The notes below the pieces were generated by a model, which was not told where the DNA came from, ran no database searches, and saw only the letters and a program-made list of their open reading frames with translations. A stretch of 64,000 bases of DNA from Desulfurococcaceae archaeon (GTDB lineage: Archaea > Thermoproteota > Thermoprotei_A > Sulfolobales > Desulfurococcaceae), in contig JAWAJB010000002.1 of NCBI GenBank assembly GCA_038888155.1, positions 160,001 to 224,000 on the forward strand, given 5' to 3'. Each line of letters begins with the position of its first letter. Within the stretch, counting starts at the first letter, position 1. Shown in pieces: positions 350 through 64,000 of this stretch. The translations under genes and the position numbers were made by a program.

Positions 350-1864
350 TTGGTTTTTGACGTTATTATAACAACCGACAGAACAATGATGACAAATCAC
401 CATGGCAAGGAATTCTTAGGCTTCATTTCTACCGGGCCTTCTTTAGGTATGCCCGAGTGGCTTTGGATGTCTATCTGTGCTCCCAAGATAAAAGTCGACG
501 ACTTGGGTAGACCTAAAGAAGCACCATATGGTCTTAGGAAAATCGAGAGCGCTCTTATTGATGCGGGTTTTAATGCATCAATTGTTGACCCAGATCACCT
601 AGATAAGCATTCAAATAGCGCGAAGGTTGTTTTGATTGGGCACCACGATTATTTTGGATATGGTCCTCCAAGCAGCGAATGGTGGAGTCTGACTCAACTT
701 GAGCCCATCAACCGCAGAAGTTTTATTAAATTCATGTCTAGCTATTCAATAAAGAAGATCAAAGAGAGAGGCGCAAAGATCATAGTAGGTGGACCTGCTG
801 CGTGGCAATGGCTGTATGAAATCGAATTAATGGAAATGTGGGGCATAGATACCGTTGTCGACGGCGAGGGAGAAAAAGTTGTGGTTGATCTTGTCAGTAA
901 GGCTTTAGCGGGCGAAAAACTCCCTCGCTACGTCTACGTGGGACCGGAAAATGCACCGAATGTTAAAGAGATACCGGTGATTAAAGGCGCAAGCATAAAT
1001 GGACTAGTTGAGATCATGAGAGGTTGCCCTAGGGGGTGTAAATTCTGCAGTGTTACATTAAGACCGCTCAGATTCATACCCATGGAGCAAATTCTCTTAG
1101 AAATAGAGGTAAACTTAAGAGCTAAGGTGAAGAGCACAATATTGCAAAGCGAAGACGTATTACTCTACTGCGCGGACGGCCTAAAGCCGAGACCTGAGCC
1201 AGTAGTTAAACTTCACAGAGAGATATTGAAGAAGATTGGTGATGAGGGTATAATAACTTGGGCACATTTAAGTTTAGCTGCTTTAAAGTACGCTGAGGAG
1301 AATTATAAGTTAATATCGAAGTTGATGCAGGAATACATACTCAATGAACATAGGAGATTTCTAGGGGTAGAAGTTGGGATCGAGACCGGTAGCCCAGAGC
1401 TAATGGAGAAAATCGCGTACGCAAAATCTCTCCCCTATAAACCTAAGGAGTGGCCAAATGTAGTTGAGGAGGCTTTTAGAATAATGCATGATAACATGAT
1501 TATACCAGCCGCTACAGTTATTCTTGGGCTACCTGGCGAAACAACAGAGGATGTAATAAAAACTATAGAACTTGTCGAGAGACTTAGACCTTACAGAAGT
1601 CTAATTATCCCAATGTTCTTTGTCCCTATGGGCGCTTTGAAGAGGGGTAAAGGATTTTTCAGGGATAACTTAAGACCTGAACACGTAGATGCTCTAATGA
1701 AAATGTATGATCACACAATCCACTGGGTTAATAACATATTAGACCTTTATTTTACTTCGCCCGCCCATATTCCTTTAAGGTTTATTCTCAGGTACTTAGT
1801 TTTATTCGTCAGGAAGAAAGTAAATAGATATCGAGGATTGTTGGAAGAAATGATTAAAAGATAG
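350..1864 (+). CDS. radical SAM protein, probable GDGT cyclopentane ring synthase (Grs family)
   Basis: CPRGCKFC motif; N-terminal TTDRTMMTNHHGKEFLGF and APYGLRKIE segments resemble GrsA-type proteins as I recall them; SD GAGGTGA then TTG. Radical SAM is secure, Grs is inferred. Confidence 0.75.
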   Translation: MVFDVIITTDRTMMTNHHGKEFLGFISTGPSLGMPEWLWMSICAPKIKVDDLGRPKEAPYGLRKIESALIDAGFNASIVDPDHLDKHSNSAKVVLIGHHDYFGYGPPSSEWWSLTQLEPINRRSFIKFMSSYSIKKIKERGAKIIVGGPAAWQWLYEIELMEMWGIDTVVDGEGEKVVVDLVSKALAGEKLPRYVYVGPENAPNVKEIPVIKGASINGLVEIMRGCPRGCKFCSVTLRPLRFIPMEQILLEIEVNLRAKVKSTILQSEDVLLYCADGLKPRPEPVVKLHREILKKIGDEGIITWAHLSLAALKYAEENYKLISKLMQEYILNEHRRFLGVEVGIETGSPELMEKIAYAKSLPYKPKEWPNVVEEAFRIMHDNMIIPAATVILGLPGETTEDVIKTIELVERLRPYRSLIIPMFFVPMGALKRGKGFFRDNLRPEHVDALMKMYDHTIHWVNNILDLYFTSPAHIPLRFILRYLVLFVRKKVNRYRGLLEEMIKR

Positions 1865-1918
1865 TTTAAAATAATAGCTTCATTATGAGATTTATGGGTC
1901 GCTAATTGGTGTATTACG

Positions 1919-3451
1919 GTGGAGACGTTTTACATTACAACGCCAATATATTACCCAAATGCAGAGCCACATATCGGGCACGCATACACAACTGTGTTCG
2001 CTGATGTCATTGCTAGGTTCAAGAGGCTGATGGGCTTAAACGTATTTTTCCTGACCGGGAACGATGAGCATGGATTGAAAATACAGAAAGTTGCAGAGAA
2101 GCTCGGTAAACATCCCAAGGAATTTGTTGATGAAATGGCAACAGTCTATAAGAAATTCTGGGCCAATTTAGATATAGGCTATGATTACTTCATTAGGACA
2201 ACGAATGCACAACACGAGAGTGTCGTAAAGGAGGCCTTTAATTACATATACAAAAAGGGCCTGATATACAAATCCCAATATGCCGGGCTGTACTGCGTTG
2301 AATGCGAAAAATACTATACTTCAGGTGAATATGTAGAGGTCAATGGTAAACCTCATTGCCCGCTCCACAACAAGCCCCTCGAGCACATGGAAGAGGAGAC
2401 ATATTACTTCAAGTTAAGCGAGTTCAAGGATTACGTTCTTGAGGTCTTAAGGGAAAGAAACAGAGTATATCCACGTAGCTATGCAGATGAAGTTATATCT
2501 AAAATAGAAAAAGAGGGCCTAAAGGATCTCTCGGTTGCAAGACCAATAGAGAGGGTTTGGTGGGGAGTCCCAGTTCCATTCGATGATAAATACATTGTAT
2601 ATGTATGGTTTGATGCGCTGTTAAATTACATTAGCGCCATAGGATACTTAGAGAACAAGGCAAGGTTTGAACAATTTTGGAACGAGGCACACCACGTTAT
2701 AGGCAAGGACATATTATGGTTTCATACAGCTGTGTGGTTCTCCATACTCAAAGCACTGGATGTTGAGCCACCCAAAAAAGTAATAGTCCACGCATTTCTA
2801 ACCTCAAAGGGGTCGAAAATGAGCAAGAGTATTGGAAACATCATTTCAATTGAAGATGTGCTGTCAAGGTATGGGGGCTCGGACGCAGTTAGATACGTGA
2901 TAATGAGAGTATTTAACATGGATAAAGACAGCGAAGTAGATTTCAACATTTTGGATAACATATATACAAGCGAACTAGTTGATACTTATGGAAACTTAGT
3001 GAGACGAGTAGGTGTACTTGCACAGAAAAAAGCTGGCGGAAAGGTATATAGAAGAAGCATTGACGCGAAGCTCTTAAACACTTTGAATGCCAAGCTTAAT
3101 TCATACCTGGATGCCATGGAGAATTTCGAAGTGTCGCGGGCAGCGGTAGAGGCTGTAGATGTAGCAAGGTTGGCCAATCAATACCTTAATGAGACAAAGC
3201 CATGGGAGAAAAGCGATCCAAGCAAAGAGCTATATACGGTACTGGAAGCAATCAGGCTCACCACACTGATGCTTTATCCATTCACCCCAAAATCCTCAAT
3301 AACAGTGGCTAAATCGCTCGGATTCATTATTGACAGCCCCATCAAGGCCGGCCTAGAATCCCATGAGAGATATAATATTGCCAGCGCGCCGATATTATAC
3401 GCAAAGCTTGATGCCAGGAGATCCTCGATTAAAGGAGAGGGAAATAGTTGA
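1919..3451 (+). CDS. metG: methionyl-tRNA synthetase, short bacterial-like type with a single Zn knuckle
   Basis: ITTPIYYPN..PHIGH, GNDEHG, CVEC..CPLH, YVWFDAL, KMSKS. Confidence 0.95.
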   Translation: METFYITTPIYYPNAEPHIGHAYTTVFADVIARFKRLMGLNVFFLTGNDEHGLKIQKVAEKLGKHPKEFVDEMATVYKKFWANLDIGYDYFIRTTNAQHESVVKEAFNYIYKKGLIYKSQYAGLYCVECEKYYTSGEYVEVNGKPHCPLHNKPLEHMEEETYYFKLSEFKDYVLEVLRERNRVYPRSYADEVISKIEKEGLKDLSVARPIERVWWGVPVPFDDKYIVYVWFDALLNYISAIGYLENKARFEQFWNEAHHVIGKDILWFHTAVWFSILKALDVEPPKKVIVHAFLTSKGSKMSKSIGNIISIEDVLSRYGGSDAVRYVIMRVFNMDKDSEVDFNILDNIYTSELVDTYGNLVRRVGVLAQKKAGGKVYRRSIDAKLLNTLNAKLNSYLDAMENFEVSRAAVEAVDVARLANQYLNETKPWEKSDPSKELYTVLEAIRLTTLMLYPFTPKSSITVAKSLGFIIDSPIKAGLESHERYNIASAPILYAKLDARRSSIKGEGNS

Positions 3452-18185: not shown

Positions 18186-18192
18186 TTTTAAA
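18186..18192 (+). promoter_or_regulatory. TATA box of the tRNA-Pro gene
   Basis: TTTTAAA about 30 nt upstream of the tRNA 5' end. Confidence 0.55.
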
Positions 18193-18219
18193 TTGCCCCG
18201 AGAATACCTAAAAGCGCTG

Positions 18220-18324
18220 GGGGCCGTAGTCTAGCCTGGCTAGGATGCCGGCCTGGGGGGAACGCCCCCGATGCCAGGTTTCCCGGAACGCCGGTGATCC
18301 CGGGTTCAAATCCCGGCGGCCCCA
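18220..18324 (+). tRNA. tRNA-Pro(GGG) with a 30-nt intron at position 37/38 (18259-18288)
   Basis: acceptor stem GGGGCCG/CGGCCCC plus discriminator A; anticodon stem CCGGC/GCCGG; T arm CCGGG-TTCAAAT-CCCGG; bulge-helix-bulge from CTGG pairing with CCGG and 3-nt bulges GGG and AAC; CCA not encoded. Confidence 0.95.
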
Positions 18325-18379
18325 TAACAAAACATATATTTAAGACCCTTTGGAGTGGTGTTTTTGGAGGAGGATGTTT

Positions 18380-18640
18380 ATGGACAGAGAAGCGAATGAA
18401 GTAAAATTTGCAGTCAAAGTAGGCGAAAAAGAGATTTACCTCAATGAAGATGTACTCAGGACTATCCACGAGTACATAAAAACACCCATGAGCCTTGAGG
18501 ACTTGGCAAGAAGGTTAAACCTAGAGAGTTGGGAGGAAGCATACGACTTCATAAAGGCGATCCCCCTATGGGTTATATGGACCCCCCCATCGCTGTGGGG
18601 CTATAGGGCTAAATGGGTCTCGAAAGAAAAGCAGCCTTAA
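18380..18640 (+). CDS. conserved hypothetical protein, possibly helix-turn-helix
   Basis: GGAGGAGG SD before ATG; MSLEDLARRLNLESWEEAYDF. Confidence 0.7.
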   Translation: MDREANEVKFAVKVGEKEIYLNEDVLRTIHEYIKTPMSLEDLARRLNLESWEEAYDFIKAIPLWVIWTPPSLWGYRAKWVSKEKQP

Positions 18641-21700: not shown

Positions 21701-22492
21701 ATCAATATAGAAGGAGAAGATCGTTCCTGACCCCCTCCTCTCTGGAAGACCCGTTAACGCCAGAACCCGCAAAATTCCCGACACAATCACTCGATCTCCA
21801 GGCCTTACCGAGTCTACAATATCGCCTGTTAAAATCGTTTCAATGGACCTTGGAATTTGTCCGCCAGGAACCTCTTCGGGTCTTTCCTGCACGACTATTT
21901 TTTGCCAGTCAATAAAGTCGCTCTTTTCTACAACAAGTTCAAATTTACCGGGTTTATGGCATATCGGGCAATAGGGAGGTCTTTCAACTCTCTCTCCAAT
22001 ATAGCCCTCAGGAGGATAGTCGAACTCGTGCTCTCCGCTTTCTGTGAAGTGTCTGTACTTAGCTCTTAAAAGTTTGGCATCAACCCTAGTTACCCTAGTA
22101 ACTATGCCCTCAACTGAGACCAATTTTCCTATGTGATCACTGTTTAACTCTCTGATCTTCATCAATAAGGGCGGGTTTCTAATTCTTACATAAAACTTTT
22201 TAACTAATTTCGCGAACTCGGGATTTTCCCTTAATATAATCTCCAGTAAAGCTTGGTTAAAACTTTCAAGAACCACTGATGGGTTTTCAACGACTCTATC
22301 TGCAAGTGAGGGGTCATATAGAATTAGGTCAACGAAGTCTACAACTAAGCTTTTCTGGCCCATTTTAATTAATTGCCACAATCTCTCGTAATACTTAGGA
22401 ATTCCCTCCTTTGACTTAAATGTTTCTATGAAGTTCTTAAATGAAGTTATGTAATCAAACGGAGGAGCTTCAACGGGCGGGACTTCAGCTAT
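18785..22492 (-). CDS. mcm: replicative helicase MCM containing one intein
   Basis: GDPGTAKSQ, IDEIDKM, SRFD, ITPRQLE; the frame stays open 37 codons above the TTG at 22381 and carries the conserved DY..F..F..TF..KY.ER helix, so the start is placed at ATA 22492. Confidence 0.96.
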   Translation of the reverse strand: MAEVPPVEAPPFDYITSFKNFIETFKSKEGIPKYYERLWQLIKMGQKSLVVDFVDLILYDPSLADRVVENPSVVLESFNQALLEIILRENPEFAKLVKKFYVRIRNPPLLMKIRELNSDHIGKLVSVEGIVTRVTRVDAKLLRAKYRHFTESGEHEFDYPPEGYIGERVERPPYCPICHKPGKFELVVEKSDFIDWQKIVVQERPEEVPGGQIPRSIETILTGDIVDSVRPGDRVIVSGILRVLALTGLPERRGSGTIFSFYIDVNHIDVQEKVLEEITITREDEEKIRELARDPWIREKIISSIAPGIYGYWDIKEAIALLLFGGTPKILPDGTRIRGDIHVLITGDPGTAKSQLLQFTSRLAPRGLYTSGKGSTAAGLTATVLRDKITGEYYLEAGALVLADGGIACLHPDTHVIIDKEWVKIGDLFRPESAIKALSNGELVELNYTKNETVSIDLSDLSSKRTTATCIRRKPWKGKLIKLTFESGNEILLTPEHLLIDGETLEWKKAEELKPGNRVLSLRKVLGHNNEIYILDVIPHNWLVIIDAHEKEELYEVISKFYGSVHKLARDSNKKIYENESRLYIEVELLRGLLKDAGKYEDWRRRTLTYLIENRVEKLSVSKVTPELAYLLGLFLGNSKSTTDSKRGEVSIKLPSDYKVVCEAAIKFLTEITSRRPTIVVENNEADPGDRSNFIGLRIESSILSHLFEYLAEREWTRLLKLPDDALRGFIAGLVDSAGLFYVTSKNSANKGDQISYLDIELRSVDQARLISIILRRFDICSKIMRKKDKVILRVSEDHDLSEIVDIIKPYSTPSKNVRIISTKKPKPLGEETIPKVLSIGLAKEIINKVQPKALTESGLREVIYRASRGELALTKRWLNRLRVKLLHALPEEVLNLLTLVTSRDYYVDRVTDVSYIEFEGFVYDLYVPGLHNYLAEGIIVHNCIDEIDKMRDEDRSAIHEALEQQTVSIAKAGIVARLNARTSVLAAGNPKYGRYDSTQPVSRNIDLPPTILSRFDLIFIVQDIPNADHDRRLAKHILGIHTEAEKARGFVDSQLLKKYISYARRYIRPQLTPEAIKLIEEFYVNLRQASLVTSEGGPSAIAITPRQLEALIRLAEAHAKIALKSKATIEDAEEAIRLVMATLSRVGFDIESGKIDIDILETGVSASRREKKKRFASFLSKLLDEVGGEIELNELYKRAQEQGFEKDFVLEVIDELKKSGEIYFPKIGRIARVR
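19664..21268 (-). mobile_element. 535-aa intein in MCM (just before Walker B) with a degenerate LAGLIDADG endonuclease
   Basis: DGGIA|CLHPDT ... LTPEH ... VYDL.V...HNYLAEGIIVHN|CIDEIDK; LAGLIDADG-like LLGLFLGNS and FIAGLVDSAG. Confidence 0.95.
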
Positions 22493-23111
22493 GTCTGCTC
22501 ACCTCGAAGATCTTACTATTAAAGATCTCTAGGATAGACCTTACAATAGCATATAAGTACTTCTCTTCTTCGCTTAAATTAGATAGTACCTCAGGGCTAA
22601 TATCCTGGACGCTAACCAAACTGAGGATCTTGCTGAGTCGCACCCTGTAGAGATTTCTAGTGGCTGTAACAAGACTAGTGATCGATTGGGCTATTTCGTG
22701 AGCCTTTTCAAGGTCATCAACGCTCTTATATTTTTTCATGATATAGGCTACCTGTGATCTGATTTTGCTAAAGAAATAGCCACCAAGCTTCTCGAACTTG
22801 ATTTGCCCCCTGCTTCTGCTCTCGTTAAAAGAAATCCTTGTCACTGAAATGTAGTCTATTTCTTCGCTGGAAAGTCTTGCCATCTCTTTTTCTTGGAGTA
22901 TTTGAGCGATCCAGCGAGGTAAAGTGTATTCCGAGCCTCGAAAGAGCTCGACATAGTCGTCTTCTATGAATACTTTAGCCGGCTTGCCTACATAAGCCAC
23001 TTTTACTTCCTCTTCTTCGAAATCTCTATTCACATAATTTACAACGAGTTGGCCCAGGAGCTCTATCAGCCCATTCAAGACAACATCCTCCACGCTTCTT
23101 AATCGGTTCAC
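22485..23111 (-). CDS. GINS complex subunit, Gins23 type
   Basis: N-terminal B domain LPRWIA.IL, NLSEEEK; directly upstream of mcm as is usual in Crenarchaeota. Confidence 0.85.
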   Translation of the reverse strand: MNRLRSVEDVVLNGLIELLGQLVVNYVNRDFEEEEVKVAYVGKPAKVFIEDDYVELFRGSEYTLPRWIAQILQEKEMARLSSEEIDYISVTRISFNESRSRGQIKFEKLGGYFFSKIRSQVAYIMKKYKSVDDLEKAHEIAQSITSLVTATRNLYRVRLSKILSLVSVQDISPEVLSNLSEEEKYLYAIVRSILEIFNSKIFEVSRHS

Positions 23112-23148
23112 CCCTTTATTACCTACATTGAAAGTATAGTTTTAAGGA

Positions 23149-24138
23149 ATGTGTTTAGAGGTGTTTGCACTGAGTGAACTCCTTTGGATAGAGAAATACA
23201 GGCCCCGCTCATTAAGCGACGTTGTGAACCAAAAGGAAATTGTGGAGAGGCTTAAAAAGTTCATTATAGAAAGAAATATACCTCACTTATTGTTTACAGG
23301 CCCCCCTGGCACAGGTAAAACCACTGTGGCCCACGCATTAAGCCACGACTTCTTTGGCGATAACTACAGGCAGTACATGCTGGAACTAAATGCCTCTGAC
23401 GAGAGAAAAATTGAGGTTATTAGAACCAAGGTAAAGGAATTTGCAAGATCGAAAGTTGTTGGAGAAATACCATTCAAGGTAATTTTACTTGATGAGGCAG
23501 ACAATATGACTGCTGATGCTCAGCAGGCATTAAGGAGGTTAATGGAGTTATACTCTGCGAGCACGAGGTTTATACTAACTGCAAACTACCCTAGCAAAAT
23601 TATTGAGCCTATACAGAGTAGGTGCGCTGTTTTTAGATTCGCGGCGCTGAAGAAAGAAGACTTGGTTCAGAGACTTATAGATATTTGCATTAAGGAGAAA
23701 GTCAAGTTCAACGAGAAAGCCCTCGAAACAATATACGAGATTTCAGAGGGAGATATGAGGAAAGCTATAAATACCCTTCAGGCCGCTGCAGCTATTGGCG
23801 AGGTAACTGAGGAGTCAGTTTACAAAGTAGTAGGCCTGGCTCATCCTAAAGAAGTACGAGAAATGTTACAGTTATCCCTAGGGGGCAACTTTATAGAGGC
23901 AAGGAAAAAGCTAAGGGACTTAATGGTTACTTATGGATTGAGCGGCGTAGACATAATTAAACAAATTCATAGAGAAATCTTTAGCGGCGAGATTAAAATA
24001 CCTGATGACCTTAAAGTAATGATCTCAGATTACGCAGGCGAAATACAGTTTAGATTAGTGGAAGGTGCTGATGACGAAATTCAATTAAATGCGTTTCTTG
24101 CCCGCCTAGCCCTAATCGGCAAAAAAATCAAGGTGTAG
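23149..24138 (+). CDS. rfcS: replication factor C small subunit (true start possibly CTG 23170)
   Basis: WIEKYRP, GPPGTGKT, ELNASDER, LDEAD, SRC, GDMRKAIN. Confidence 0.96.
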   Translation: MCLEVFALSELLWIEKYRPRSLSDVVNQKEIVERLKKFIIERNIPHLLFTGPPGTGKTTVAHALSHDFFGDNYRQYMLELNASDERKIEVIRTKVKEFARSKVVGEIPFKVILLDEADNMTADAQQALRRLMELYSASTRFILTANYPSKIIEPIQSRCAVFRFAALKKEDLVQRLIDICIKEKVKFNEKALETIYEISEGDMRKAINTLQAAAAIGEVTEESVYKVVGLAHPKEVREMLQLSLGGNFIEARKKLRDLMVTYGLSGVDIIKQIHREIFSGEIKIPDDLKVMISDYAGEIQFRLVEGADDEIQLNAFLARLALIGKKIKV

Positions 24139-24141
24139 CGT

Positions 24142-25416
24142 TTGAGTTCAACCAATGTGCCGTGGATCATAAAGTACAGACCTAAGCACATAGACGAGGT
24201 GGTGGATCAAGATAATGCTAAGGAGAAAGTATTAGAGTGGCTAAACCTCTGGGGACAGGGCGTCCCCAAGAATAGGGCTCTCATTTTGTATGGACCTCCT
24301 GGGTGCGGAAAGACAAGCCTGGTTGAAGCCATTTCAAAGACATATGGATATGAATTGTTTGAAATGAATGCTAGCGATAACAGGAGGAGAGGCGACATAG
24401 AGAGATTGGCAAAAATGGCATCTCAAACAAGTGGGTTGAGTGGGAAAAAAAGATTGATCTTGCTGGATGAAGTTGATGGTTTAGACCCAAGGGCAGATGC
24501 GGGGGGCATCGAGGCCCTTTGGGATGTTATCAGGAACACTAGAAACCCCGTAATAATGACTGCTAATAATCCGTATAGAGAACACTTAAGGCCCTTACGG
24601 GAGGTTTCTGAAATAGTTGCCATGGATAGACTCAAAGAAAAGCACGTTTTATTGATCCTCAATAAAATATGCACAGCCGAGAATCTTAAATGCGATAAAG
24701 AGGCGCTGGATGAGATAGCTAGGAGAAGCGAGGGCGATATAAGAAGCGCTATAAATGACCTCGAAGCTGTGTCCGCTCTCAACAAGCTGGTGACCTTAGA
24801 TACTGTCAAGGCAATTACCACGTATAGGGATAGAATTTACGCTCCTTGGGATGCCCTTAGGAAGCTTTTTACCGCGAAGTACTTATTTCAAGCAAAAAAT
24901 GCAATCACCTCATCCGATCTATCACCCGATGAGATCATTACATGGGTAAATGAACACATTCCATCATACTACGAGTCGGATATCGAGGTTTGGAGGGCCT
25001 ACGAGGCATTAAGCAGGGCTGATGTATACCTGGGTAGGATAATTAAAACGCAAAACTGGGATCTGCTCTCCTTTGTTACGGATCTAATGGGACCTGGAGT
25101 AGCTTTTGCTAGGACAACTTACAAGTATAGGTGGGTAGCTTTCAAAATGCCAGAGAGAATAAGGCTCTTGATAGAGACTAAAAAATCAAGGGAACTCAGG
25201 GAGACAATAGCTACATATTTAGCTAGTAGATTGCAAATGAGCAGAGCAAGCTTTAAAAGCGAAGTATTGCCCTACTTAAGAGTAATATTCACTTCTAATC
25301 CAAGGTATGCCGCCCGAATTGCTAGATCTTACGGCTTACCAGAAGAGCTCGTTACATGGATATCTGGACCTAAAGCGCGTGAAGTGATAAGCTACATGAA
25401 AAAGCACGAAAGCTAG
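24142..25416 (+). CDS. rfcL: replication factor C large subunit
   Basis: PWIIKYRP, GPPGCGKT, EMNASD, LDEVDG, GDIRSAINDL. Confidence 0.95.
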   Translation: MSSTNVPWIIKYRPKHIDEVVDQDNAKEKVLEWLNLWGQGVPKNRALILYGPPGCGKTSLVEAISKTYGYELFEMNASDNRRRGDIERLAKMASQTSGLSGKKRLILLDEVDGLDPRADAGGIEALWDVIRNTRNPVIMTANNPYREHLRPLREVSEIVAMDRLKEKHVLLILNKICTAENLKCDKEALDEIARRSEGDIRSAINDLEAVSALNKLVTLDTVKAITTYRDRIYAPWDALRKLFTAKYLFQAKNAITSSDLSPDEIITWVNEHIPSYYESDIEVWRAYEALSRADVYLGRIIKTQNWDLLSFVTDLMGPGVAFARTTYKYRWVAFKMPERIRLLIETKKSRELRETIATYLASRLQMSRASFKSEVLPYLRVIFTSNPRYAARIARSYGLPEELVTWISGPKAREVISYMKKHES

Positions 25417-25462
25417 CAATCCACTTGAACACTGTTCATAGCTGAGAAATTTGAAATTTGTC

Positions 25463-26920
25463 CTATCGGCTTAGGGAATACCCCCTTAATCCTCCTTTAA
25501 GACTGTAGGCCATTACTCCATTTTCCCTAAACATTTTGGCTAACAAATAGCTAATGCTACCGGTCTCGCATACGACAATTACTATCTTGTCCCTAGGAAG
25601 CTCCGGAGGGCTCACCTTGCTTATTGGTATGGCATTTGCTGGCAGTTTTCCTATCTCCGGTCTTGATCTTGCATCTATTACAATCGCATCTTCTGGGATA
25701 AAATCTATTTCGATATCATTGGTTAATATTATATCCTCTGGTCTAGCTTTACTTACATAGAATATTTTAGCTGAAGACGCTGCACTTTCTATAACGGAAT
25801 GATCTATTTTACTTAATTGTTCAACTATCTCGTTCGGCGTCGTAGAGGTTACTACTCTTTGAGGTGCAATAGCACAGGACTCTGTTACCTTTGACGATAA
25901 GTCAAATAAGCCAAGAACCCTTGATACTTTAATTATCTCCTCTTTATCAAGGCTGATAAGTGGCCTGAATATAGGTAAGGAGGGCTTAATGGCCGCCTCT
26001 ATTGAAGAGATGTTTTTAAGAGTTTGACTCGATGCTTGCCCAATGGACTCGCCGGTAACAATACCATCGTAGTTCATTTTATTAGCTAGCTTAAAGGATA
26101 TAATGTACATTAACGCTCTTAAGATCACCTGTCTATAGGCCCACTCTACTTTTTTGGATATCTCCATGATGACGTTCGTAAAATCTACAACAATGAACTT
26201 TGATCCGTATCCATGAAGCCACTCTTGGGCAAGTTTTCGAGCTACCATAAAAGAGTAATACGATGCTTGAGAAGACCCCATCATATAATGAAGGAAATCT
26301 ACTTGAATCCCCCTCTTGGCCATAAGCCATGCAGCAACGGGGGAATCAAACCCACCAGAAAACAGAACAAGGGCCTTCCCCTCTACGCCTAATGGAAGAC
26401 CGCCTGGACCACTTAGAGACTCTTTGTACAGAAAAGCAGTATCTCCGTGAACCTCAACCTCTAACTCTATCTCTGGGTTATCCAAGTCAACCCCACTAGA
26501 TAGTGGTTTCAGAAGAGCTCCGGCCTCCCTTGCAACGTCAACTGATCTAAATGAATGTACTCCGCTTCTTTTAACTCTAATAGCGAACTTTTTATCCTTG
26601 ACTATGTCCTTTGTGTTCTCAAAGATCCACATTGAAAGATCTCGCAGGTCTTTGAATTGGTAATCTATTACTCTCGCAACCCTATGAACGCCAAACACTC
26701 TTGATATGTTAAGCAATGCCTCCTTATCCGTCACAATAAGTATTTTTGCGTTGATAATTTTATTCTCAAGTACGTTTGCACCCCCTCTCCTCACAGCATC
26801 GCCAATATTTTCAAGTAGAACCCTGTAGAATTTAGGCCTTGTTCTACTTGTTCTAAGAGGTATTTCCCCACTAACAGTAATCAAGTACACCGGCAAATCA
26901 GTCACGCCACAACTTAGCAT
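25463..26920 (-). CDS. thiI: tRNA 4-thiouridine synthase ThiI (THUMP, PP-loop and rhodanese domains)
   Basis: GEI, GGLPLG, SGGFDS, TGESIGQ.SSQT, RPL; C-terminal IDAR and VVCETG. Confidence 0.92.
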   Translation of the reverse strand: MLSCGVTDLPVYLITVSGEIPLRTSRTRPKFYRVLLENIGDAVRRGGANVLENKIINAKILIVTDKEALLNISRVFGVHRVARVIDYQFKDLRDLSMWIFENTKDIVKDKKFAIRVKRSGVHSFRSVDVAREAGALLKPLSSGVDLDNPEIELEVEVHGDTAFLYKESLSGPGGLPLGVEGKALVLFSGGFDSPVAAWLMAKRGIQVDFLHYMMGSSQASYYSFMVARKLAQEWLHGYGSKFIVVDFTNVIMEISKKVEWAYRQVILRALMYIISFKLANKMNYDGIVTGESIGQASSQTLKNISSIEAAIKPSLPIFRPLISLDKEEIIKVSRVLGLFDLSSKVTESCAIAPQRVVTSTTPNEIVEQLSKIDHSVIESAASSAKIFYVSKARPEDIILTNDIEIDFIPEDAIVIDARSRPEIGKLPANAIPISKVSPPELPRDKIVIVVCETGSISYLLAKMFRENGVMAYSLKGGLRGYSLSR

Positions 26921-27181
26921 TAATATAGATGAAATTCAGGTTAATTAGTGCAAATATCCGTCACATGCTTGTGTTAAGTGAAGCGATTGAGGCTGACCTC
27001 GATTAAGTTAAGTTTATATAGCAAATAGGTCAAGGCCCAGAAATACCCCGATTAGATCAATTGAAGTCAATATTTTCTTCATTCATTAAAAAGACAACTA
27101 ATATAAGCGTGGTAGACATCATTAACATGTATTGAGTACGTAAAATAAAAATTCACTAAAATGCATAAGTGGGTGTTGAGC

Positions 27182-28195
27182 GTGTTAACATTATTAGTGG
27201 GTGGCTTTTTCGGCGATGAAGGAAAAGGAAAGATAGCCGCATATATATCGCTCGCAAAGAACTATAGATATGCAGTTAGAACTGGTTCAATAAACGCCGG
27301 TCACACTGTCGTATATAAGAACAAAAATTACAAGCTTAGGTCAATACCCGCAGCCTTTATCAACCCTGAGGCCAAGTTGCTTATACCCCCAGGAGCACTA
27401 ATTAAACTGGATGTATTCTTTAAGGAGGTCGAATCGCTGGGCGTTGAAAAGAGAGTAATCGTCGATTACAAGACAGGCATCATCGAGGAAAATCACGTTG
27501 AAAGAGAAAAGTCAGATGCAGTATTATCGCACATAGGGTCAACTTTTCAGGGTGTTGGCTCAGCTACCTCAGATAGGGTTTTAAGGAGGTTAAAACTTGC
27601 CGCAGACTTCAAGGAGCTTCAGAGTTACTTATGCGATGTACCTACCACTTTAAATAATGCATTAGAAAATAACGAAAAAGTAATTATAGAGGGAACACAA
27701 GGAACATTTCTCTCTCTATACCATGGAACCTATCCATATGTCACAAGCAGGGACACCACTGCTGCAGGACTACTCTCTGAGGTAGGGTTAGGCCCCAAGA
27801 AAGTTGACGAGATCGTAATGGTTTTTAAGGCTTATGTTACGCGAGTAGGGGAAGGTCCATTACCCGGAGAACTAAGCCAAGAGGAGATAATAAAGCTTGG
27901 TTGGATAGAGCGAGGAACAGTAACAGGAAGGCTGAGGAGAGTAGCCCCATTTAACTACGATCTTGCCTTGAGGGCGATAAGATTGAACTCTGCAACTCAG
28001 ATAGCTATTACTAAACTTGATTCGATATTTCCTGAGGTTCGGGGCATTAGAACATGGGACAAGTTACCCAGTACTGCTAAGAGATGGATTGACAATATAG
28101 AATCACAGCTGAAACTACCTGTAACCCTTATCGGCACTGGCGAAGAGGTAGAAGATATTGTAGATAGAACGCTGGAGTTGGGTGTCGAGCTATGA
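27182..28195 (+). CDS. purA: adenylosuccinate synthetase (short archaeal type)
   Basis: GDEGKGK, NAGHT, EGTQG, GTYPYVTS, GTVTGR.RR; GTG behind GGGTG (ORF track opens at 27161). Confidence 0.96.
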   Translation: MLTLLVGGFFGDEGKGKIAAYISLAKNYRYAVRTGSINAGHTVVYKNKNYKLRSIPAAFINPEAKLLIPPGALIKLDVFFKEVESLGVEKRVIVDYKTGIIEENHVEREKSDAVLSHIGSTFQGVGSATSDRVLRRLKLAADFKELQSYLCDVPTTLNNALENNEKVIIEGTQGTFLSLYHGTYPYVTSRDTTAAGLLSEVGLGPKKVDEIVMVFKAYVTRVGEGPLPGELSQEEIIKLGWIERGTVTGRLRRVAPFNYDLALRAIRLNSATQIAITKLDSIFPEVRGIRTWDKLPSTAKRWIDNIESQLKLPVTLIGTGEEVEDIVDRTLELGVEL

Positions 28196-29616
28196 AAGAA
28201 TATGATGTAGCTATAATTGGTGGAGGGCCGGCTGGGATATACGCAGCAGTTGAATTAATTAAACTCACAGGTGGATCATTGAAGGTAGCCCTATTTGATC
28301 GAGGCGCTAGAGTTGAGGAAAGATCATGCCCGATAACCCGGGAAGCAATAGATACATCGGGTTCTTATACAGGTAAGCTTTTAAACTGTGGCTCATGCGT
28401 TATTTGTCATATACTATATGGAATAGGAGGGGCAGGAACTTTTAGCAGTGGAACTGTTAATTTAAGGCCTGATATTGGTGGAGACCTAGATAAGTTACTA
28501 GGTAGTTGGGAGAAAGCGGAGGAAGTCATTAAGTATGTAGACAAGATCCTCTTAGAGTTCGGTGCACCTCAGGAAACACTTCTAGAGCCTGATTTAAGGA
28601 AGATTCGTAGTATTGAGAGGCTAGTTGCCAAAGCGGGGGCAAAGTTCATCCCTGCAACTCAAAGAGTTCTCGGCTCTGAGAATGTTATCAAAGTTGTTTA
28701 CAACATAACTAAATTTCTCGAGGAAAACAACGTTAAGATATTTTCTTTTACATCCGTAATTGACATAGCTAGTGACCAGAACATTTATAAGCTGAACACC
28801 AGTAGTGGGGATTTTTATGCACACAAAGTGCTTTTAGCTCCCGGTCGCGGAGGTGCTCGCTGGTTTAAGGACATTGCTGAAAGATTGGGGATCGAGGTTG
28901 AACCTGGGCCTTTAGACATTGGCGTCCGCGTGGAAGTTCCGTATTATATAACTGAGCACATCGTTAAAGTAAATTACGATCCTAAAGTAGTGATGTACAC
29001 AAGGTCCTATGATGATATGGTCAGAACATTCTGCACTAATCCCCAGGGTTATGTGATAAAGGAGATGTACGATGATGGAACTGTAGGCGTAAACGGGGAA
29101 TCATATAATACTGTTAAATCGAAGAACACTAATTTTGCACTGTTAGTAACTCTGAAGCTCACCGTTCCATATACGGATGTCCTTGAACTAGGCAAATCTA
29201 TTGCTAGGATAGCTACTAAAGTAGGTATAGGTAAACCAATTATACAAAGGCTCGGAGATCTCGAAAAGGGCAGAAGAAGCACCTGGGATATGATATCGAG
29301 AAGCGTTATAACACCTACGCTTAGAGATTCAACGCCTGGCGATATTAGTTTGGTCCTACCGCAAAGGGTAATGGAGAACATTCTCGAGGCCATTGAAAGG
29401 CTAGATGTCCTTTATCCAGGTTTAGCCTCCCCGCAAACACTTCTTTATGCACCTGAAATAAAATATTACAGCGTTAAAGCCAAAATAAACGAAAATTTTG
29501 AGACAACAGCCCCCTCTGTTTATGTGGCAGGGGATGGCGTAGGGCTGTCAAGGGGTATAAATGTAGCTGCGGCGACCGGCGTCCTCGCAGCAAGAGGGAT
29601 CGTGAGAACACTATAA
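28192..29616 (+). CDS. uncharacterised FAD-dependent oxidoreductase (COG2509-like)
   Basis: GGGPAG, C-x-C-x2-C-x2-C cluster, GIGGAG.FS.G, VRTFCTNP.G, GDG.G.SRGI; ATGA overlap with purA. Confidence 0.85.
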   Translation: MKEYDVAIIGGGPAGIYAAVELIKLTGGSLKVALFDRGARVEERSCPITREAIDTSGSYTGKLLNCGSCVICHILYGIGGAGTFSSGTVNLRPDIGGDLDKLLGSWEKAEEVIKYVDKILLEFGAPQETLLEPDLRKIRSIERLVAKAGAKFIPATQRVLGSENVIKVVYNITKFLEENNVKIFSFTSVIDIASDQNIYKLNTSSGDFYAHKVLLAPGRGGARWFKDIAERLGIEVEPGPLDIGVRVEVPYYITEHIVKVNYDPKVVMYTRSYDDMVRTFCTNPQGYVIKEMYDDGTVGVNGESYNTVKSKNTNFALLVTLKLTVPYTDVLELGKSIARIATKVGIGKPIIQRLGDLEKGRRSTWDMISRSVITPTLRDSTPGDISLVLPQRVMENILEAIERLDVLYPGLASPQTLLYAPEIKYYSVKAKINENFETTAPSVYVAGDGVGLSRGINVAAATGVLAARGIVRTL

Positions 29617-29617
29617 G

Positions 29618-30988
29618 GTGATTACAGTGGCTGAACATGTGTGCGTTTTTAACTGGAGATACGGTTCCCAAGAGTTAAGGGGCCTGTTTACAGTGGCAAA
29701 TATAGTGAGAACATACGTAAATGTGGAAGTAGCTTTGCTCAAAGGGCTCGTGTTGGCAGGTTTAGCGCCTGCACGTTGCTATGAGGAGGTCAGAGTATGC
29801 GCGGAGAAGCTAAAGCCCATGGAAATGTATGAAATGGAGCTTATAACAGGACACGATATTGCCTCCTTAGCGTTCATTTTAGGTGAACGATGTGGTGAAT
29901 GCGGTAAATTCATTCACTTAGGGGCCACGAGTTACGATATAGTAGATACCGCGTGGGCCCTCATACTTAGAGAAGCACTTCGAATTATTAAGGATAAGAT
30001 AAAACGAGTTATAGACACTTTAATGGAGCTTGCAGAAAAGCATGTCGATGATTATGTAATTGGTAGAACTCACGGCCAACACGCTCTACCAATTACATTC
30101 GGATTCAAGTTTGCTAACTATGCGTATGAGCTATCCAGAAGCTACGAGAGGTTAATTGAGCTGGAGAACAGGCTTGTTAAGTTAAAGATGAGCGGCTCTG
30201 TGGGCACGATGGCGTCGTGGGGTGAGAAGGGGATATTAGTTGAGGGGATGGTTGGAAAAGAGCTTTGCTTGGAACCACACCCCATAACTACTCAGGTGGC
30301 GCCTAGAGATAGCTTTGCAGAATTAGCAGTTGATCTAGCGATACTCGGATCTCAGCTAGATAGATTAGCGCTGGAAGCTCGAGAGCTCTCTAGGACAGAA
30401 ATAGGCGAAATATATGAGGCAGTCCAAAGGATTGGAAGTAGTGCTATGCCGCATAAAAGGAACCCAGTTATTGCAGAGAGAGTATCGAGCTTGGCTAAAA
30501 TTTTAAGAGGGCTGTCTCTCAGTTCCCTTGAGAATATACCATTGATGCACGAGAGGGACCTAACCAATAGTGCCAGCGAGCGCGTAATAATTCCTCACAT
30601 AATCCTCACAATAGATCAAATGCTCGAGGATACAATAAAGCTATTGAAAACTATTAAACTTGATACTAATGCTTCACGAAGAAACCTAGAACTTACAAGA
30701 GGGGGTATTTATAGCGAGATAATAGTCTCAGAGCTCGTTAAGAAAGGGTGGCATAGAAATGTAGCCTATGAGAAAGTGAGAAGTTTAGTGCCACCCGTTA
30801 GTAGCGAGGAGACCCTCTTTGGGGCTATAATGAAAGATCCAGAGCTGTCTCATTACTTTAGTGAAGAAGAGTTAAAAGCGATAATGACGCCAGAATACGT
30901 TACAAAGAACGTTAGGAAGATTGTGGAGAGAGCTCTGGATTTCGCTAAAAAAGCTATCAGCAAAGAGCCTGGAAATAAGTGTACTTAG
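29618..30988 (+). CDS. purB: adenylosuccinate lyase (likely start GTG 29627)
   Basis: HLGATSYD, GRTHGQHA.P, GSSAMPHKRNP, HERDL. Confidence 0.95.
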   Translation: MITVAEHVCVFNWRYGSQELRGLFTVANIVRTYVNVEVALLKGLVLAGLAPARCYEEVRVCAEKLKPMEMYEMELITGHDIASLAFILGERCGECGKFIHLGATSYDIVDTAWALILREALRIIKDKIKRVIDTLMELAEKHVDDYVIGRTHGQHALPITFGFKFANYAYELSRSYERLIELENRLVKLKMSGSVGTMASWGEKGILVEGMVGKELCLEPHPITTQVAPRDSFAELAVDLAILGSQLDRLALEARELSRTEIGEIYEAVQRIGSSAMPHKRNPVIAERVSSLAKILRGLSLSSLENIPLMHERDLTNSASERVIIPHIILTIDQMLEDTIKLLKTIKLDTNASRRNLELTRGGIYSEIIVSELVKKGWHRNVAYEKVRSLVPPVSSEETLFGAIMKDPELSHYFSEEELKAIMTPEYVTKNVRKIVERALDFAKKAISKEPGNKCT

Positions 30989-30992
30989 GTGA

Positions 30993-31610
<618 letters not shown>

Positions 31611-32331: not shown

Positions 32332-32912
32332 AGCTGTATAAAAATGGGATGGTTAAGCTAGGCGAATTCAAGCTATCCTCAGGACTGTACAGCCCATTCT
32401 ATATTGATATGAGGAGGTTATACAGTTTCCCAGATTTAACTCGTCGAGTTGTTCAGGAACTGATTTCTAGAGTACCCTTCATGGATATTGATGTTATTGT
32501 AGGCGTCGAGTCTGCAGGCATACCATTGGCAGCATATATAGCATGTTTCATCAATAAGCCCATGGCCTATGTAAGAAAAGAGAAAAAGAACTATGCAACA
32601 GGTCTAGGAGTTGAAGGAGATGTTTCGGGTAAGAGAGCTCTTGTAATAGATGATGTAGTTACCACTGGAAACTCGCTTTTAAAAGCAATAGTAAATCTCA
32701 AAGAGGCTGGCTCAATCCCAGTGAGGACAGTGGTTCTTGTGGATAGAGAGCAGGGTGCACGGGAAAACCTCTATAGGCATGGGGTAGAACTGTATTCACT
32801 AGCAACTGCAAGTAGTATATTTAGGGATCTATATAATGCTGGTCTAATCAAAGAAGGAGACTACATCAACATAATAAAATATCTTGAGTCATTTAAGAGC
32901 AAGGTCGATTAA
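32313..32912 (+). CDS. pyrE: orotate phosphoribosyltransferase
   Basis: GEFKLSSG..SPFYID, VRKE.K, IDDVVTTG.S, VDREQG. Confidence 0.95.
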   Translation: MSWFAVELYKNGMVKLGEFKLSSGLYSPFYIDMRRLYSFPDLTRRVVQELISRVPFMDIDVIVGVESAGIPLAAYIACFINKPMAYVRKEKKNYATGLGVEGDVSGKRALVIDDVVTTGNSLLKAIVNLKEAGSIPVRTVVLVDREQGARENLYRHGVELYSLATASSIFRDLYNAGLIKEGDYINIIKYLESFKSKVD

Positions 32913-33678: not shown

Positions 33679-34564
33679 AATTGCAGGGTTGCAACTAGAA
33701 CATCCGGTGTTAAACGCAAGTGGCATACTAGGTTCAGAGCCAGAACATATCACAATTCTTGTTAATGCAGGTTTCTCTGCTATTGTGACTAAAACATTTA
33801 CAGTAAGACCAAGAGAGGGGTATCAGCCACCTATATTGGTTGAGTTAAACAATTATAGCTTCTTAAATGCAGTGGGTCTGCCTAATCCGGGCATAGATTT
33901 CATTCCGGGGTTTATAGCTAAGATCAAAGATTTCAAGAAGCCCATTATTCTCAGTATCGGGGGAAACTACATTGAAGAATACGCCAAATTAGCAATCGTT
34001 GCCGAAGAAGCAGGGGTAGACGCTATAGAGGTAAATTTAAGTTGTCCACACGTAAAAGGCTACGGCTTAGAGATAGGGTCGGATCCGTCCTCGGTGAGAG
34101 ATGTAATAAAAAATATTGCATCAGTGATAAAAATACCCATAATAGTCAAATTAGGCGTCTCGGACAGGGTCGTTGAATCGGCTGGCAAAGCACTTGAGGC
34201 TGGAGCTAAGGCAATTACATTGATAAACACCATCAAGGCCATGGCAATTGATATTTACACAAAGACTCCAATTTTATCAAATAAACAGGGAGGTCTCTCT
34301 GGTGCTTCAATAAGACCGATAGCTATTAGAGTTGTTTACGATGTCTTCAAGGAATACAGGCCAGAGATAATAGGATGCGGGGGAATTATAAGTTGGAGAG
34401 ATGCGGCAGAGTTTATACTTGCAGGAGCGAAGGCTGTTCAAATTGGAAGCGCATTCCTGAAAAATCCGAGAATCGTTTTCGAGACTATAGAGGGTCTTAG
34501 AGACTGGGTTACATTTTTAGGATTCCACAGTCTAGAAGAACTTGTAGGCGCTGCCCACAAGTAA
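33653..34564 (+). CDS. pyrD: dihydroorotate dehydrogenase family 1B catalytic subunit
   Basis: NASG, NAVGL.NPG, NLSCPH, INT, GGLSG; frame extends above TTG 33689 with IDLKTKIAGL, so the start is probably ATC 33653 or ATA 33662. Confidence 0.95.
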   Translation: MSRIDLKTKIAGLQLEHPVLNASGILGSEPEHITILVNAGFSAIVTKTFTVRPREGYQPPILVELNNYSFLNAVGLPNPGIDFIPGFIAKIKDFKKPIILSIGGNYIEEYAKLAIVAEEAGVDAIEVNLSCPHVKGYGLEIGSDPSSVRDVIKNIASVIKIPIIVKLGVSDRVVESAGKALEAGAKAITLINTIKAMAIDIYTKTPILSNKQGGLSGASIRPIAIRVVYDVFKEYRPEIIGCGGIISWRDAAEFILAGAKAVQIGSAFLKNPRIVFETIEGLRDWVTFLGFHSLEELVGAAHK

Positions 34565-44896: not shown

Positions 44897-44897
44897 A

Positions 44898-62473: not shown

Positions 62474-63394
62474 ATGGGCTTTGGAAGATATATAATAAAA
62501 AGCCTATTGGCCTCCATACCTGTGCTTATAGGGGCTACTTTTATAGTATTTGCCCTTATTTACGTTACAGGTGACCCAGTCAGCGTAATTCTAGGAGAGT
62601 TCGCAACTCCAGAATTAGTTGAGAAGCTTAGGCAAGACCTTGGGCTAGATAAACCACTTATCGTTCAGTACTTCATTTGGTTAAGTAGGGTAATAAGAGG
62701 AGATTTTGGGGTGTCCTATATGAGCAGGCTTCCAGTAACACTAGTTGTACTAGAGAGAATCCCAACTACGCTAATGTTAACTGGAACTGCATTTCTAATT
62801 TCACTAGGCCTGGGCATTTCATCTGGCGTTCTGGCCGCCCTTCGACACGGCTCAAGGGTGGATACGATTATTAGTTCTGTTATCATATTCTTCTTCTCTG
62901 TGCCCTACTTCTGGTTCGCTACAGTTCTCTTGTGGATATTTACTGTTCAGATACGATTGTACTCTACAATCGGCGATCTCTTTCAAAGGTTGTGGTTGCC
63001 GTCTATTGCCCTAGGAGTTCCTACGGCGGCAGCGTACGCTAAGCTCACCAGATCTAATGTTATTGACACGCTTTATCAAGACTATGTTCGTACCGCTAAG
63101 TCTAAGGGTTTAAGGGAACGCATTATTATTATAAGGCACGTTCTAAAAAATGCACTATTACCTATAGTAGCTCTTGCTGTTCTGAGAATTCCATGGCTTT
63201 TTGGCGGCGCCGTAGTAACAGAATCTGTATTCGGTTGGCCCGGATTGGGTTCGCTGCTTATAACAGCAATATATAGGCGAGATTTTCCCATAGTTCAAGC
63301 CATAACATTCATTATAGTAGTTATGATTACAGTATCGGATATACTTGGTGACCTGTTAATGGCGCTTATAGACCCTAGGGTGCGAATGGGGTGA
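62474..63394 (+). CDS. dppB: peptide/nickel ABC transporter permease
   Basis: GLDKP..VQY, GDFG.S, DYVRTA.SKGL, ESVF.WPG.G, DPRVR. Confidence 0.92.
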   Translation: MGFGRYIIKSLLASIPVLIGATFIVFALIYVTGDPVSVILGEFATPELVEKLRQDLGLDKPLIVQYFIWLSRVIRGDFGVSYMSRLPVTLVVLERIPTTLMLTGTAFLISLGLGISSGVLAALRHGSRVDTIISSVIIFFFSVPYFWFATVLLWIFTVQIRLYSTIGDLFQRLWLPSIALGVPTAAAYAKLTRSNVIDTLYQDYVRTAKSKGLRERIIIIRHVLKNALLPIVALAVLRIPWLFGGAVVTESVFGWPGLGSLLITAIYRRDFPIVQAITFIIVVMITVSDILGDLLMALIDPRVRMG

Positions 63395-63400
63395 CCCACT

Positions 63401-64000
63401 CTGGGTGTGCTTAAATCATCATTAGACATTATAAAAAAGAACATCATAGGAAAAACAGCAATTTTTCTCAGGGATAAGAAGAGCTTATTGAGCATTACCA
63501 TACTCTTATGCATAGTAATGTTATCTGTAATGGCCGACTATATTGCACCTTATCACTTTAACGAACAGGATCTAGCTAGAAGGTTGCAACCTCCCAGCAT
63601 GATCCACGTCTTTGGTACTGATGCTCTGGGAAGAGACATATTTTCTAGGATATTGTACGCGGGTCGCGTGACGCTCTTGTTGGGTGTAACGATAACCATA
63701 CTCACATCAATTATAGGGATCTCCTTTGGCTTGCTATCGGGTTACGTTGGTGGGTTAGTTGACCTAATTATATGCAAAATAGCTGAGATCTTTTGGGCTT
63801 TCCCAACAATAGTACTGGCCCTCGCGTTAGCCGCTGTTCTCGGCCCGAGCGTTGAAAATGTAATCCTAGTTCTTGCTATACTTATGTGGGTGCCGTTTAC
63901 TAAGGTCACTAGGGCTAAAGCGCTTGTTCTGCGTGAAATGCCATTCATTAAGTATGTAAAGGCATTGGGCCTAAACCCCTTTATAATAATAGGTAAACAC
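63401..64000 (+). CDS. dppC: peptide ABC transporter permease, runs off the window end
   Basis: frame from CTG 63401 or GTG 63407 reads IAPY..LQPPS..HVFGTDALGRDIFSRILY; absent from the ORF track because no stop lies in the window. Confidence 0.88.
   Translation, partial: MGVLKSSLDIIKKNIIGKTAIFLRDKKSLLSITILLCIVMLSVMADYIAPYHFNEQDLARRLQPPSMIHVFGTDALGRDIFSRILYAGRVTLLLGVTITILTSIIGISFGLLSGYVGGLVDLIICKIAEIFWAFPTIVLALALAAVLGPSVENVILVLAILMWVPFTKVTRAKALVLREMPFIKYVKALGLNPFIIIGKH

Follow-up and report, generated by a model that had tools for sequence, protein, structure and literature searches.

Start codons other than ATG, GTG, and TTG are known from single bacterial genes. In E. coli, infC starts at AUU or AUA and pcnB at AUU, and in Deinococcus the starts of dnaA and rpsL are ATC and CTG (PMC2830850; bioRxiv 10.1101/063800). 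In annotations, a switch to CUG or AUU is described as very rare, at 1.6e-5 to 4e-4 (PMC5622118). In eukaryotes, near-cognates such as CUG, ACG, and AUA are read by the initiator Met-tRNA (Met-tRNAi) and policed by eIF1 (PMC4705826). For archaea, reviews of initiation name only AUG, GUG, and UUG in their accounts of start codons (PMC7531240; PMC4705826), and aIF1 is reported to destabilize non-AUG complexes (PMC6237735). Our literature searches for archaeal non-canonical starts, from whose scope supplements were excluded, surfaced no report of systematic non-NTG starts. Here we examine start codons in a stretch of 64,000 nucleotides, referred to as the window, from an uncultured Desulfurococcaceae-like archaeon (GenBank assembly GCA_038888155.1, contig JAWAJB010000002.1, positions 160,001 to 224,000 of the forward strand), in which mcm, encoding an essential helicase, rfcS, pyrD, and a permease gene, dppC, each carry a near-cognate of AUG at the spacing expected from a strong Shine-Dalgarno (SD) sequence. 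Together with genome-wide scans, these genes point to SD-anchored initiation at AUG near-cognates as the probable mode of start in a minority of the genes of this organism.

The resemblance to the bacterial cases is close, in that single-mismatch starts occur in housekeeping and replication genes, are found by aligning the starts of orthologues, and are missed by gene callers. The differences are of scale and setting. Bacterial cases number a handful per genome, with two confirmed in E. coli, whereas about 10-20 per genome are estimated here; the archaeal system works with aIF1 and aIF2 and without IF3, its SD is GGTGA at 6-7 nt, and ACG is the most enriched codon. Eukaryotes share the set of tolerated codons and a homologous factor family, aIF1 being a SUI1 homologue, but in the archaeon there is no scanning, the ribosome is set by the SD, and many of the genes sit inside operons as internal cistrons.

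The window (G000:C2:160001-224000, about 41% G+C) belongs to G000, the source assembly, which comprises 2.42 Mb in 134 contigs and is 97% complete and 6.4% contaminated; its same-genus relatives measure 0.9-1.5 Mb. Two further genomes were scanned with it: G002, a congener of about 1.5 Mb in 3 contigs, taken whole, and G028, a single-contig genome from another family within the order, of which 800 kb of 1.32 Mb was used. The sequencing runs that contain the window stretch are hot-spring metagenomes.

For mcm, the coding region read from ATA runs from 22492 to 18785 on the minus strand (1235 codons), with an N-terminus conserved in congeners. The SD GAGGTGA (22505-22499) is followed by the 6-nt spacer GCAGAC and the proposed ATA start (22492-22490); the frame itself opens at TGA 22501-22499 and continues GCA GAC ATA GCT GAA. 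The first in-frame ATG, GTG, or TTG is TTG 22381, 37 codons in, and a reading of the sequence finds no SD within usable distance of it. Homology to the congeners starts about 25 codons upstream of this TTG, and the stretch FDYITSFKNFIETFKSKEG...KYYERLW, likewise upstream, aligns with every relative; no canonical in-frame start precedes the conserved N-terminus. At the column of the ATA, all 14 same-genus mcm loci that extend over the start (L002-L015) have ATG (5 loci) or GTG (9 loci), and in 12 of them the block TTCGAGGT or TTTGAGGT precedes that start. Read from ATA 22492, which is very probably the true start, the predicted MCM N-terminus would be (M)AEVPPVEAPPFDYITSFK. The SD lies within the 3′ end of a GINS-like gene (22485-23111, minus strand), a weak match to the Pfam Sld5/GINS helical bundle (E 1.7e-4, 22.2 bits, cut-off 22.3), whose stop TGA (22487-22485) overlaps the mcm start region (ATAGCTGA). 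In congeners, the mcm SD doubles as coding sequence for FEV, the conserved C-terminus of the GINS-like protein. The mcm open frame measures 1237 aa in G000 and 1236 aa in G002, compared with about 700 aa in most congeners, and the extra length suggests an intein-sized insertion.

The rfcS gene, on the plus strand, presents GAGGTG (23158-23163), the spacer TTTGCA, and then CTG 23170-23172. Two canonical codons are also in frame, GTG 23161-23163 within the SD itself and ATG 23149-23151, the latter a canonical alternative start. In 11 same-genus loci, the column of the CTG is occupied by TTG (8), ATG (1), or CTG (2), and at one congener locus (L049, from G006) the CTG stands without any canonical in-frame codon, preceded by AGGAGGTG and 7 nt. 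More widely, among 80 Desulfurococcales rfcS loci there are 6 in which the 22 codons before a conserved W include no canonical one. They comprise L161 and five loci that form a clade (L201-L204, L239), and all of them show AGGTGG or AGGTGA, 6 nt, and CTG. The nearest named matches of the G000 gene are from uncultured Desulfurococcaceae and Desulfurococcales assemblies and from Thermogladius. On balance, we favor CTG 23170 as the rfcS start.

The pyrD start has a more tangled history. Its SD, GAGGTGA (33640-33646, plus strand), lies inside the 3′ end of the upstream gene, which we take to be pyrK, following the name given in an earlier note on this DNA, and which ends at TAA 33676-33678; the starts of both mcm and pyrD thereby overlap their upstream genes. 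After the spacer TGCCTT comes ATC 33653-33655, 6 nt from GGTGA. In 7 of 9 same-genus loci, pyrD starts at a TTG that stands 9-10 nt after GAGGTG; in G000 this column holds TCG (33656-33658), and the ATC is one codon upstream, at the 6-nt spacing. The two remaining loci (L025 and L026, from G007 and G009) have TCA in the TTG column and ATG two codons upstream. Judging from these alignments, the pyrD start has shifted more than once within the genus. Initiation at the first canonical in-frame codon, TTG 33689-33691, would drop about 12 N-terminal residues that can be aligned with congeners, and whether pyrD starts at ATC 33653 is an evenly balanced question. In the oppC/dppC-like permease gene, GGTGA (63390-63394, plus strand) is followed by the spacer CCCACT and CTG 63401-63403, while a canonical alternative, GTG 63407-63409, lies 12 nt after GGTGA. 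Spacing 12 is rare, with 3, 3, and 1 first-canonical starts in G000 against 53, 42, and 49 at spacing 6. A close dppC orthologue was sought in G002 and in the part of G028 used, and none was found; the assignment of the start to CTG 63401 is tentative and somewhat doubtful.

With GGTGA or GAGGTG 6 nt upstream at all four window sites, none of them looks like a candidate for leaderless initiation. The earlier note had named these four codons as non-canonical starts, and each is indeed located exactly 6 nt after GGTGA or GAGGTG. As starts they fare unequally: the case is strong for mcm, moderate for rfcS and pyrD, and weak for dppC, and rfcS and dppC have canonical alternatives. At pyrD, the codon orthologous to the congener start is the mutated TCG and not the ATC that it named. 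It had also held that canonical starts in orthologues would overturn the idea; such starts are indeed found, yet they identify the columns of the ATA and the CTG as the start position and so lend support instead.

Genome-wide, the scan took stop-to-stop frames of at least 100 codons, considered positions at least 5 codons upstream of the first ATG, GTG, or TTG, and read the codon found at each spacing after GGTGN. The near-cognates CTG, ATA, ATT, ATC, and ACG (set A) were counted at spacings of 6-7 nt ("on") and at the seven spacings 3, 4, 9, 10, 12, 13, and 15 ("off"). In G000, set A made up 30 of 128 codons on spacing and 39 of 458 off spacing (odds ratio (OR) 3.3, p 1.7e-5). The corresponding counts were 21/94 and 42/348 in G002 (OR 2.1, p 0.019) and 14/44 and 14/151 in G028 (OR 4.6, p 5e-4), giving 65/266 and 95/957 for the pooled genomes (OR 2.9, p 7e-9). 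Canonical starts peak 6 nt after GGTGN, and the near-cognates, all of them single-mismatch variants of AUG, show their excess solely at 6-7 nt, the spacing that canonical starts use. When all codons at these spacings were ranked without prior selection, ACG came first (17 on against 12 off, OR 5.4, one-sided p 1.4e-5) and was found in all three genomes; CTG, ATA, and ATT ranked third to fifth, and ATC was only weakly enriched. To our knowledge, NCBI table 11 does not list ACG as a start codon. A raw tally of triplets after every GGTGA, with frames unrestricted, was discarded, as internal coding GGTGA sites swamped the counts and no clear near-cognate peak was seen.

The enrichment depends on both the codon and the motif. 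AAG and AGG, which are not tolerated in eukaryotic near-cognate initiation, showed no on-spacing enrichment (OR 0.74, 1.15, and 0 in the three genomes). Nor did the 11 codons that are one change away only from GTG or TTG (OR 1.06 and 1.05, and 1/44 against 19/151 in G028), a result that speaks against random decay of starts. Nine non-SD 4-mers used as control motifs gave OR of 0.88-1.30, all with p>0.25; the overlapping core AGGT gave 1.6, and GAGG, shifted by 2 nt, gave 0.96. In 300 kb of E. coli K-12, no enrichment was seen after GGAG (8/93 against 15/203, OR 1.18), AGGA (4/75 against 31/312, OR 0.51), or GAGG (9/109 against 22/204, OR 0.74), and the known pcnB start (GAGG, 6 nt, ATT), which lies inside this segment, was missing from the scan hits.

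An independent measure of how many candidates are real comes from operon context, defined as an upstream open reading frame (ORF) of at least 80 codons ending within -25 to +12 nt of the start. Such a neighbor was present for 206 of 541 canonical GGTG-led starts (38%) and 18 of 65 on-spacing near-cognates (28%), compared with 13 of 201 other on-spacing codons (6%) and 6 of 93 off-spacing near-cognates (6%). These rates imply that about two thirds of the 65 candidates are real starts, in agreement with an excess of about 39. Across the three genomes, the 541 canonical GGTG-led starts thus compare with an estimated 39-45 near-cognate starts, or about 19 genes in G000 (2.4 Mb), 10 in G002 (1.5 Mb), and 10 in G028 (0.8 Mb). 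Near-cognates would account for about 0.5-1% of genes, assuming one gene per kb, and their number would come to about 5-10% of that of canonical starts led by GGTG at this spacing. By design, the scan passes over genes in which a canonical codon is in frame upstream or no more than four codons away, as in rfcS and dppC, as well as SDs without GGTG; the estimates are therefore lower bounds. More than 90% of GGTG-led starts are canonical.

Two broader claims of the earlier note can be set against these counts. Near-cognates at SD-optimal spacing in housekeeping genes, which it had reported from the window, recur genome-wide in two congeners and in the genome from another family, and are specific to both SD and spacing. 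Its stronger proposal, that SD position outweighs codon identity, is contradicted: only codons one mismatch from AUG are enriched, and canonical starts number 541 against 39-45. Its list of codons (TTG, CTG, ATA, and ATC) omitted ACG and ATT, the strongest genome-wide. As it had foreseen, standard callers limited to ATG, GTG, and TTG would miss such starts.

Comparison between genomes connects individual candidates, whose gene identities were assigned with Pfam, to canonical starts of orthologues or to conserved near-cognates. In a Clp1-like gene, the ACG of G000 aligns codon-to-codon with TTG of G002; in a cytidine deaminase gene, CTG of G000 aligns in the same way with TTG of G002; and in the gene for phosphoenolpyruvate (PEP) synthase, ATT of G000 aligns with ATG of G028. 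The start contexts of the Clp1-like and PEP synthase genes were compared in G002 and G028 only. Five near-cognates of G002 stand opposite canonical starts (ACG/ATG, ACG/TTG, ACG/GTG, ATA/TTG, and CTG/TTG), and a CTG of G028 stands opposite a GTG of G002. As in mcm, no canonical in-frame start lies upstream of the conserved N-terminus in the genes for PEP synthase, the Clp1-like protein, the tRNA endonuclease, a CYTH protein, and cytidine deaminase. Conservation of the near-cognate itself is found in the tRNA-intron-endonuclease gene, where G000 and G002 both have GGTGA, 6 nt, and ACG, as do all 7 metagenomic relatives (L286-L292) of 60-66% identity. Fifteen of the 46 loci returned for this gene were examined; in the other 8, which are at most 47% identical, the N-terminus is unaligned or the start is canonical. 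The 6-nt spacer is variable. After the ACG, a canonical codon comes only 21-130 codons later, a distance that reaches into or past the N-terminal domain; Pfam places tRNA_int_endo_N at residues 22-95, and the first canonical codon stands at +29 in G000 and at +130 in G002. In G000, an identical start context, GGTGAAGAAGTACGATA, is shared by the gene for a family-4 glycosyltransferase and the unrelated endonuclease gene (G000:C2, minus strand scan position 233679, and G000:C4, minus strand scan position 71295). Leads were also drawn from the D statistic, the first canonical codon minus the start of the BLAST alignment, over 1087 reciprocal-best pairs of G000 and G002. D was at least 5 in 32 cases in G000 only, in 38 in G002 only, and in 62 shared cases; it was rejected as evidence, many cases being false, with alignments that run into conserved SD or operon DNA, or with split genes.

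These observations can be accommodated by a simple model. The 3′ end of 16S rRNA, whose anti-SD is assumed, would pair with a strong GGTGA-type SD and anchor the small subunit, so placing the P site about 6 nt downstream. There the initiator Met-tRNA (anticodon CAU) would usually read ATG, GTG, or TTG, in roughly equal shares, and in a minority of genes the same tRNA may read the one-mismatch codons ACG, CTG, ATA, ATT, and probably ATC. What the sequences show is the anatomy of the sites, their alignment with canonical starts of orthologues, the enrichment, the conservation between species, and the stability across samples; decoding of the near-cognates as initiator Met, with whatever efficiency, is inferred. 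The 16S 3′ end was sought with two patterns in G000, G002, and the G028 part and was not found, hence the assumed anti-SD. The components that could be inspected look ordinary. The initiator-type tRNA-Met of G000 (complement of G000:C1:243055-243327), predicted by ARAGORN to contain an intron of about 198 nt, combines A1..U72 with the anticodon CAT and the stem CGGGG/CCCCG, with standard G-C pairs; without introns ARAGORN predicted no initiator tRNA, and with introns it predicted one in G000 and none in G002 or the G028 part. The aIF1 of G000 is an ordinary SUI1 homologue that aligns over its full length with the archaeal aIF1 structures 5zcy and 4mo0 and retains the RKFGK and ELQGD blocks. 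No obvious change was seen in initiator tRNA or aIF1, which the earlier note had suggested inspecting for substitutions; the lack of any sign of a lineage-specific change in these two fits a signal that occurs in two families.

Canonical start usage in these genomes is itself rich in TTG, which is about as frequent as ATG, a usage already known. N-terminal proteomics of Aeropyrum pernix, from the same order-level lineage, gave TTG 52%, ATG 28%, and GTG 20% (Yamazaki, 2006, cited in PMC5911459 and PMC2830850); that work differs from the present case in treating, as far as it is summarized in those papers, the three canonical codons, with ACG, CTG, ATA, and ATT not mentioned. The first canonical codon with GGTG at 4-7 nt was ATG, GTG, or TTG in 156, 96, and 119 cases in G000, 137, 64, and 124 in G002, and 75, 4, and 41 in the 800 kb of G028. 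GTG is nearly absent from the GGTG-led starts of this part of G028 (4/120), and TTG is common (41/120). In the window, 46 ORFs have congener hits, and 30 of them have a canonical codon of G000 at an ungapped consensus start column (ATG 14, TTG 11, GTG 5). On manual reading, the remaining 16 are mostly one or two codons off through indels, and the codon rows give TTG for three of these (at about 12135, 40029, and 47876). The resulting 14 TTG starts with orthologue support, to which TTG ORFs without an orthologue may be added, come close to the at least 15 that had been claimed. The 11 TTG starts in consensus columns of orthologues are that of the gene downstream of rfcS (24142-24144, plus strand) and those with first base at 350, 3448, 30999, 31648, 32914, and 44372 on the plus strand and at 17958, 23078, 26896, and 49770 on the minus strand. 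Elsewhere in the window, the short ORF o53 (about 18192-18404, plus strand) matches relatives only over a GGGGGCCGTCGTCTA-like stretch and seems to be a conserved RNA gene, not a protein-coding one.

Several points weigh against initiation at near-cognates. The support for it is at the level of sequence, and near-cognates in E. coli initiate at only 0.1-3% of AUG (bioRxiv 10.1101/063800); with rates so low, an essential helicase on ATA would require either low demand or a more tolerant system. Within the window, G000 rfcS has ATG 23149 and GTG 23161 in frame upstream of its CTG, and in dppC the GTG at 63407 is only two codons downstream of CTG 63401. In the unselected ranking, CTC, with two mismatches from AUG, came second (8 against 7, one-sided p 0.007), possibly by chance, and chance is expected to explain about one third of the 65 on-spacing candidates. 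The E. coli control is a small one: each core has only about 40-45 canonical SD-led starts, and power is low. G000 is contaminated (6.4%) and far larger than its congeners, and many candidates are on small contigs. Its 2.42 Mb compares with 0.9-1.5 Mb in congeners and its 69 tRNAs with 47 in G002; it has two intron-bearing elongator tRNA-Met genes, one on C1 and one on C29, whose introns differ, and C31 carries another rfcS copy with 49% identity. G000 may therefore represent two organisms or contain a large accessory fraction.

Two further adverse observations, the plain replacement of TTG by TCG at pyrD and the confinement of the mcm ATA to this species among the same-genus loci compared, also favor an explanation by loss, in which the near-cognates are mutated former starts and the genes are translated in truncated form from downstream canonical codons, or are decaying. 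Every single-base change of ATG yields a near-cognate, a further point in its favor. About two thirds of starts are GTG or TTG, however, so that loss should also raise GTA, GTC, GCG, TTA, and TCG, and the decay of ATG should raise AAG and AGG; none of these codons shows an excess. Different species share the ACG of the endonuclease and the CTG of rfcS, the N-termini that would be skipped align with relatives and in some cases belong to domains such as tRNA_int_endo_N, and in mcm the codon that would take over, TTG 22381, has no SD at a usable distance. We consider start-codon loss unlikely.

The window genes could also be accounted for with canonical codons, if rfcS started at ATG 23149 or GTG 23161, dppC at GTG 63407, and pyrD at TTG 33689, leaving the mcm ATA as the sole exception, made possible by coupling to the GINS-like gene. 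All three genes do have such in-frame codons, the GINS-like stop at 22487-22485 does overlap the mcm start, and coupling to an upstream ORF is a feature of 38% of GGTG-led canonical starts. Against this stand the column alignment of rfcS and the congener with CTG alone, and, for dppC, the rarity of a GTG 12 nt after GGTGA. The genome-wide enrichment is independent of the window genes, with rfcS and dppC left out by design, and near-cognates are not coupled more often than canonical starts (18/65 against 206/541). This arrangement is quite unlikely.

In plant organelles, ACG is edited to AUG at start codons. The genomic ACG at the start position of conserved genes, the commonest case here, recalls that process, and an RNA-level correction of this kind, with C-to-U changes, would leave initiation canonical; nothing direct favors it, and we know of no such editing system in archaea. 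Four further codons are involved here, and the five together would need at least four kinds of base change (C>U, C>A, A>G, U>G or C>G). In the metatranscriptome run X6, the contigs that fall on the stretch show three scattered differences, none at starts; the candidate sites, among them 22490-92 of mcm and 33653-55 of pyrD, lie outside those contigs. Editing is very improbable.

The start codons themselves are stable across samples. Contigs of run X1, which may be the source sample of the window, span 22000-34500 at depth 34 with zero differences. X2 represents another sample from that study; one of its contigs matches 22279-22848 without a single difference and carries the same mcm ATA. The pyrD start is covered by an X2 contig (32931-33712) and by one from X3, a different study (33325-34427), and is unchanged in both; the only difference in these contigs is at 33241. 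The mcm start is thus unchanged in two samples of one study, and the pyrD start in three samples of two studies. All differences listed across runs are at 26278, 29761, 33119, 33241, and 33739, and no run lists variants at 22490-92, 23170-72, or 33653-58; rfcS 23170 is outside the listed X2 and X3 pieces, and its cover there rests on bin depth alone (6.3 in X2, 3.8 in X3). The mcm and pyrD start codons are not assembly errors, a possibility that had been raised with the first report of them. That the wider pattern is a sequencing, assembly, or binning artefact is hardly credible, for all the 134 contigs and 6.4% contamination of G000, given identical sequence in contigs of other samples and of another study and the same pattern in G002, with 3 contigs, and in the single-contig G028.

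SD-anchored initiation at near-cognates would have consequences for annotation and for the biology of these archaea. Callers restricted to ATG, GTG, and TTG would truncate or shift about 1 gene in 100, with mcm losing 37 codons. If the model is true, archaeal aIF1 and aIF2 would tolerate third-position mismatches and ACG in vivo when the SD fixes the P site, a tolerance that bears on the evolution of eukaryotic stringency. In bacteria, an AUU start sets low expression of infC, and conserved weak starts on replication and RNA-processing genes could likewise hold expression low. More generally, we lean toward the view that Desulfurococcales, and probably other TACK archaea, accept ACG, CUG, AUA, AUU, and AUC, once a strong SD helix anchors the 30S subunit, as selected, genuine starts in about 1% of their genes, among them such essential replication and RNA-processing genes as mcm, rfcS, and the tRNA-splicing endonuclease gene; that these starts may be set-points for low expression; that the fidelity of initiation in these organisms would lie between the bacterial and eukaryotic regimes; and that archaeal annotations would systematically truncate such proteins.

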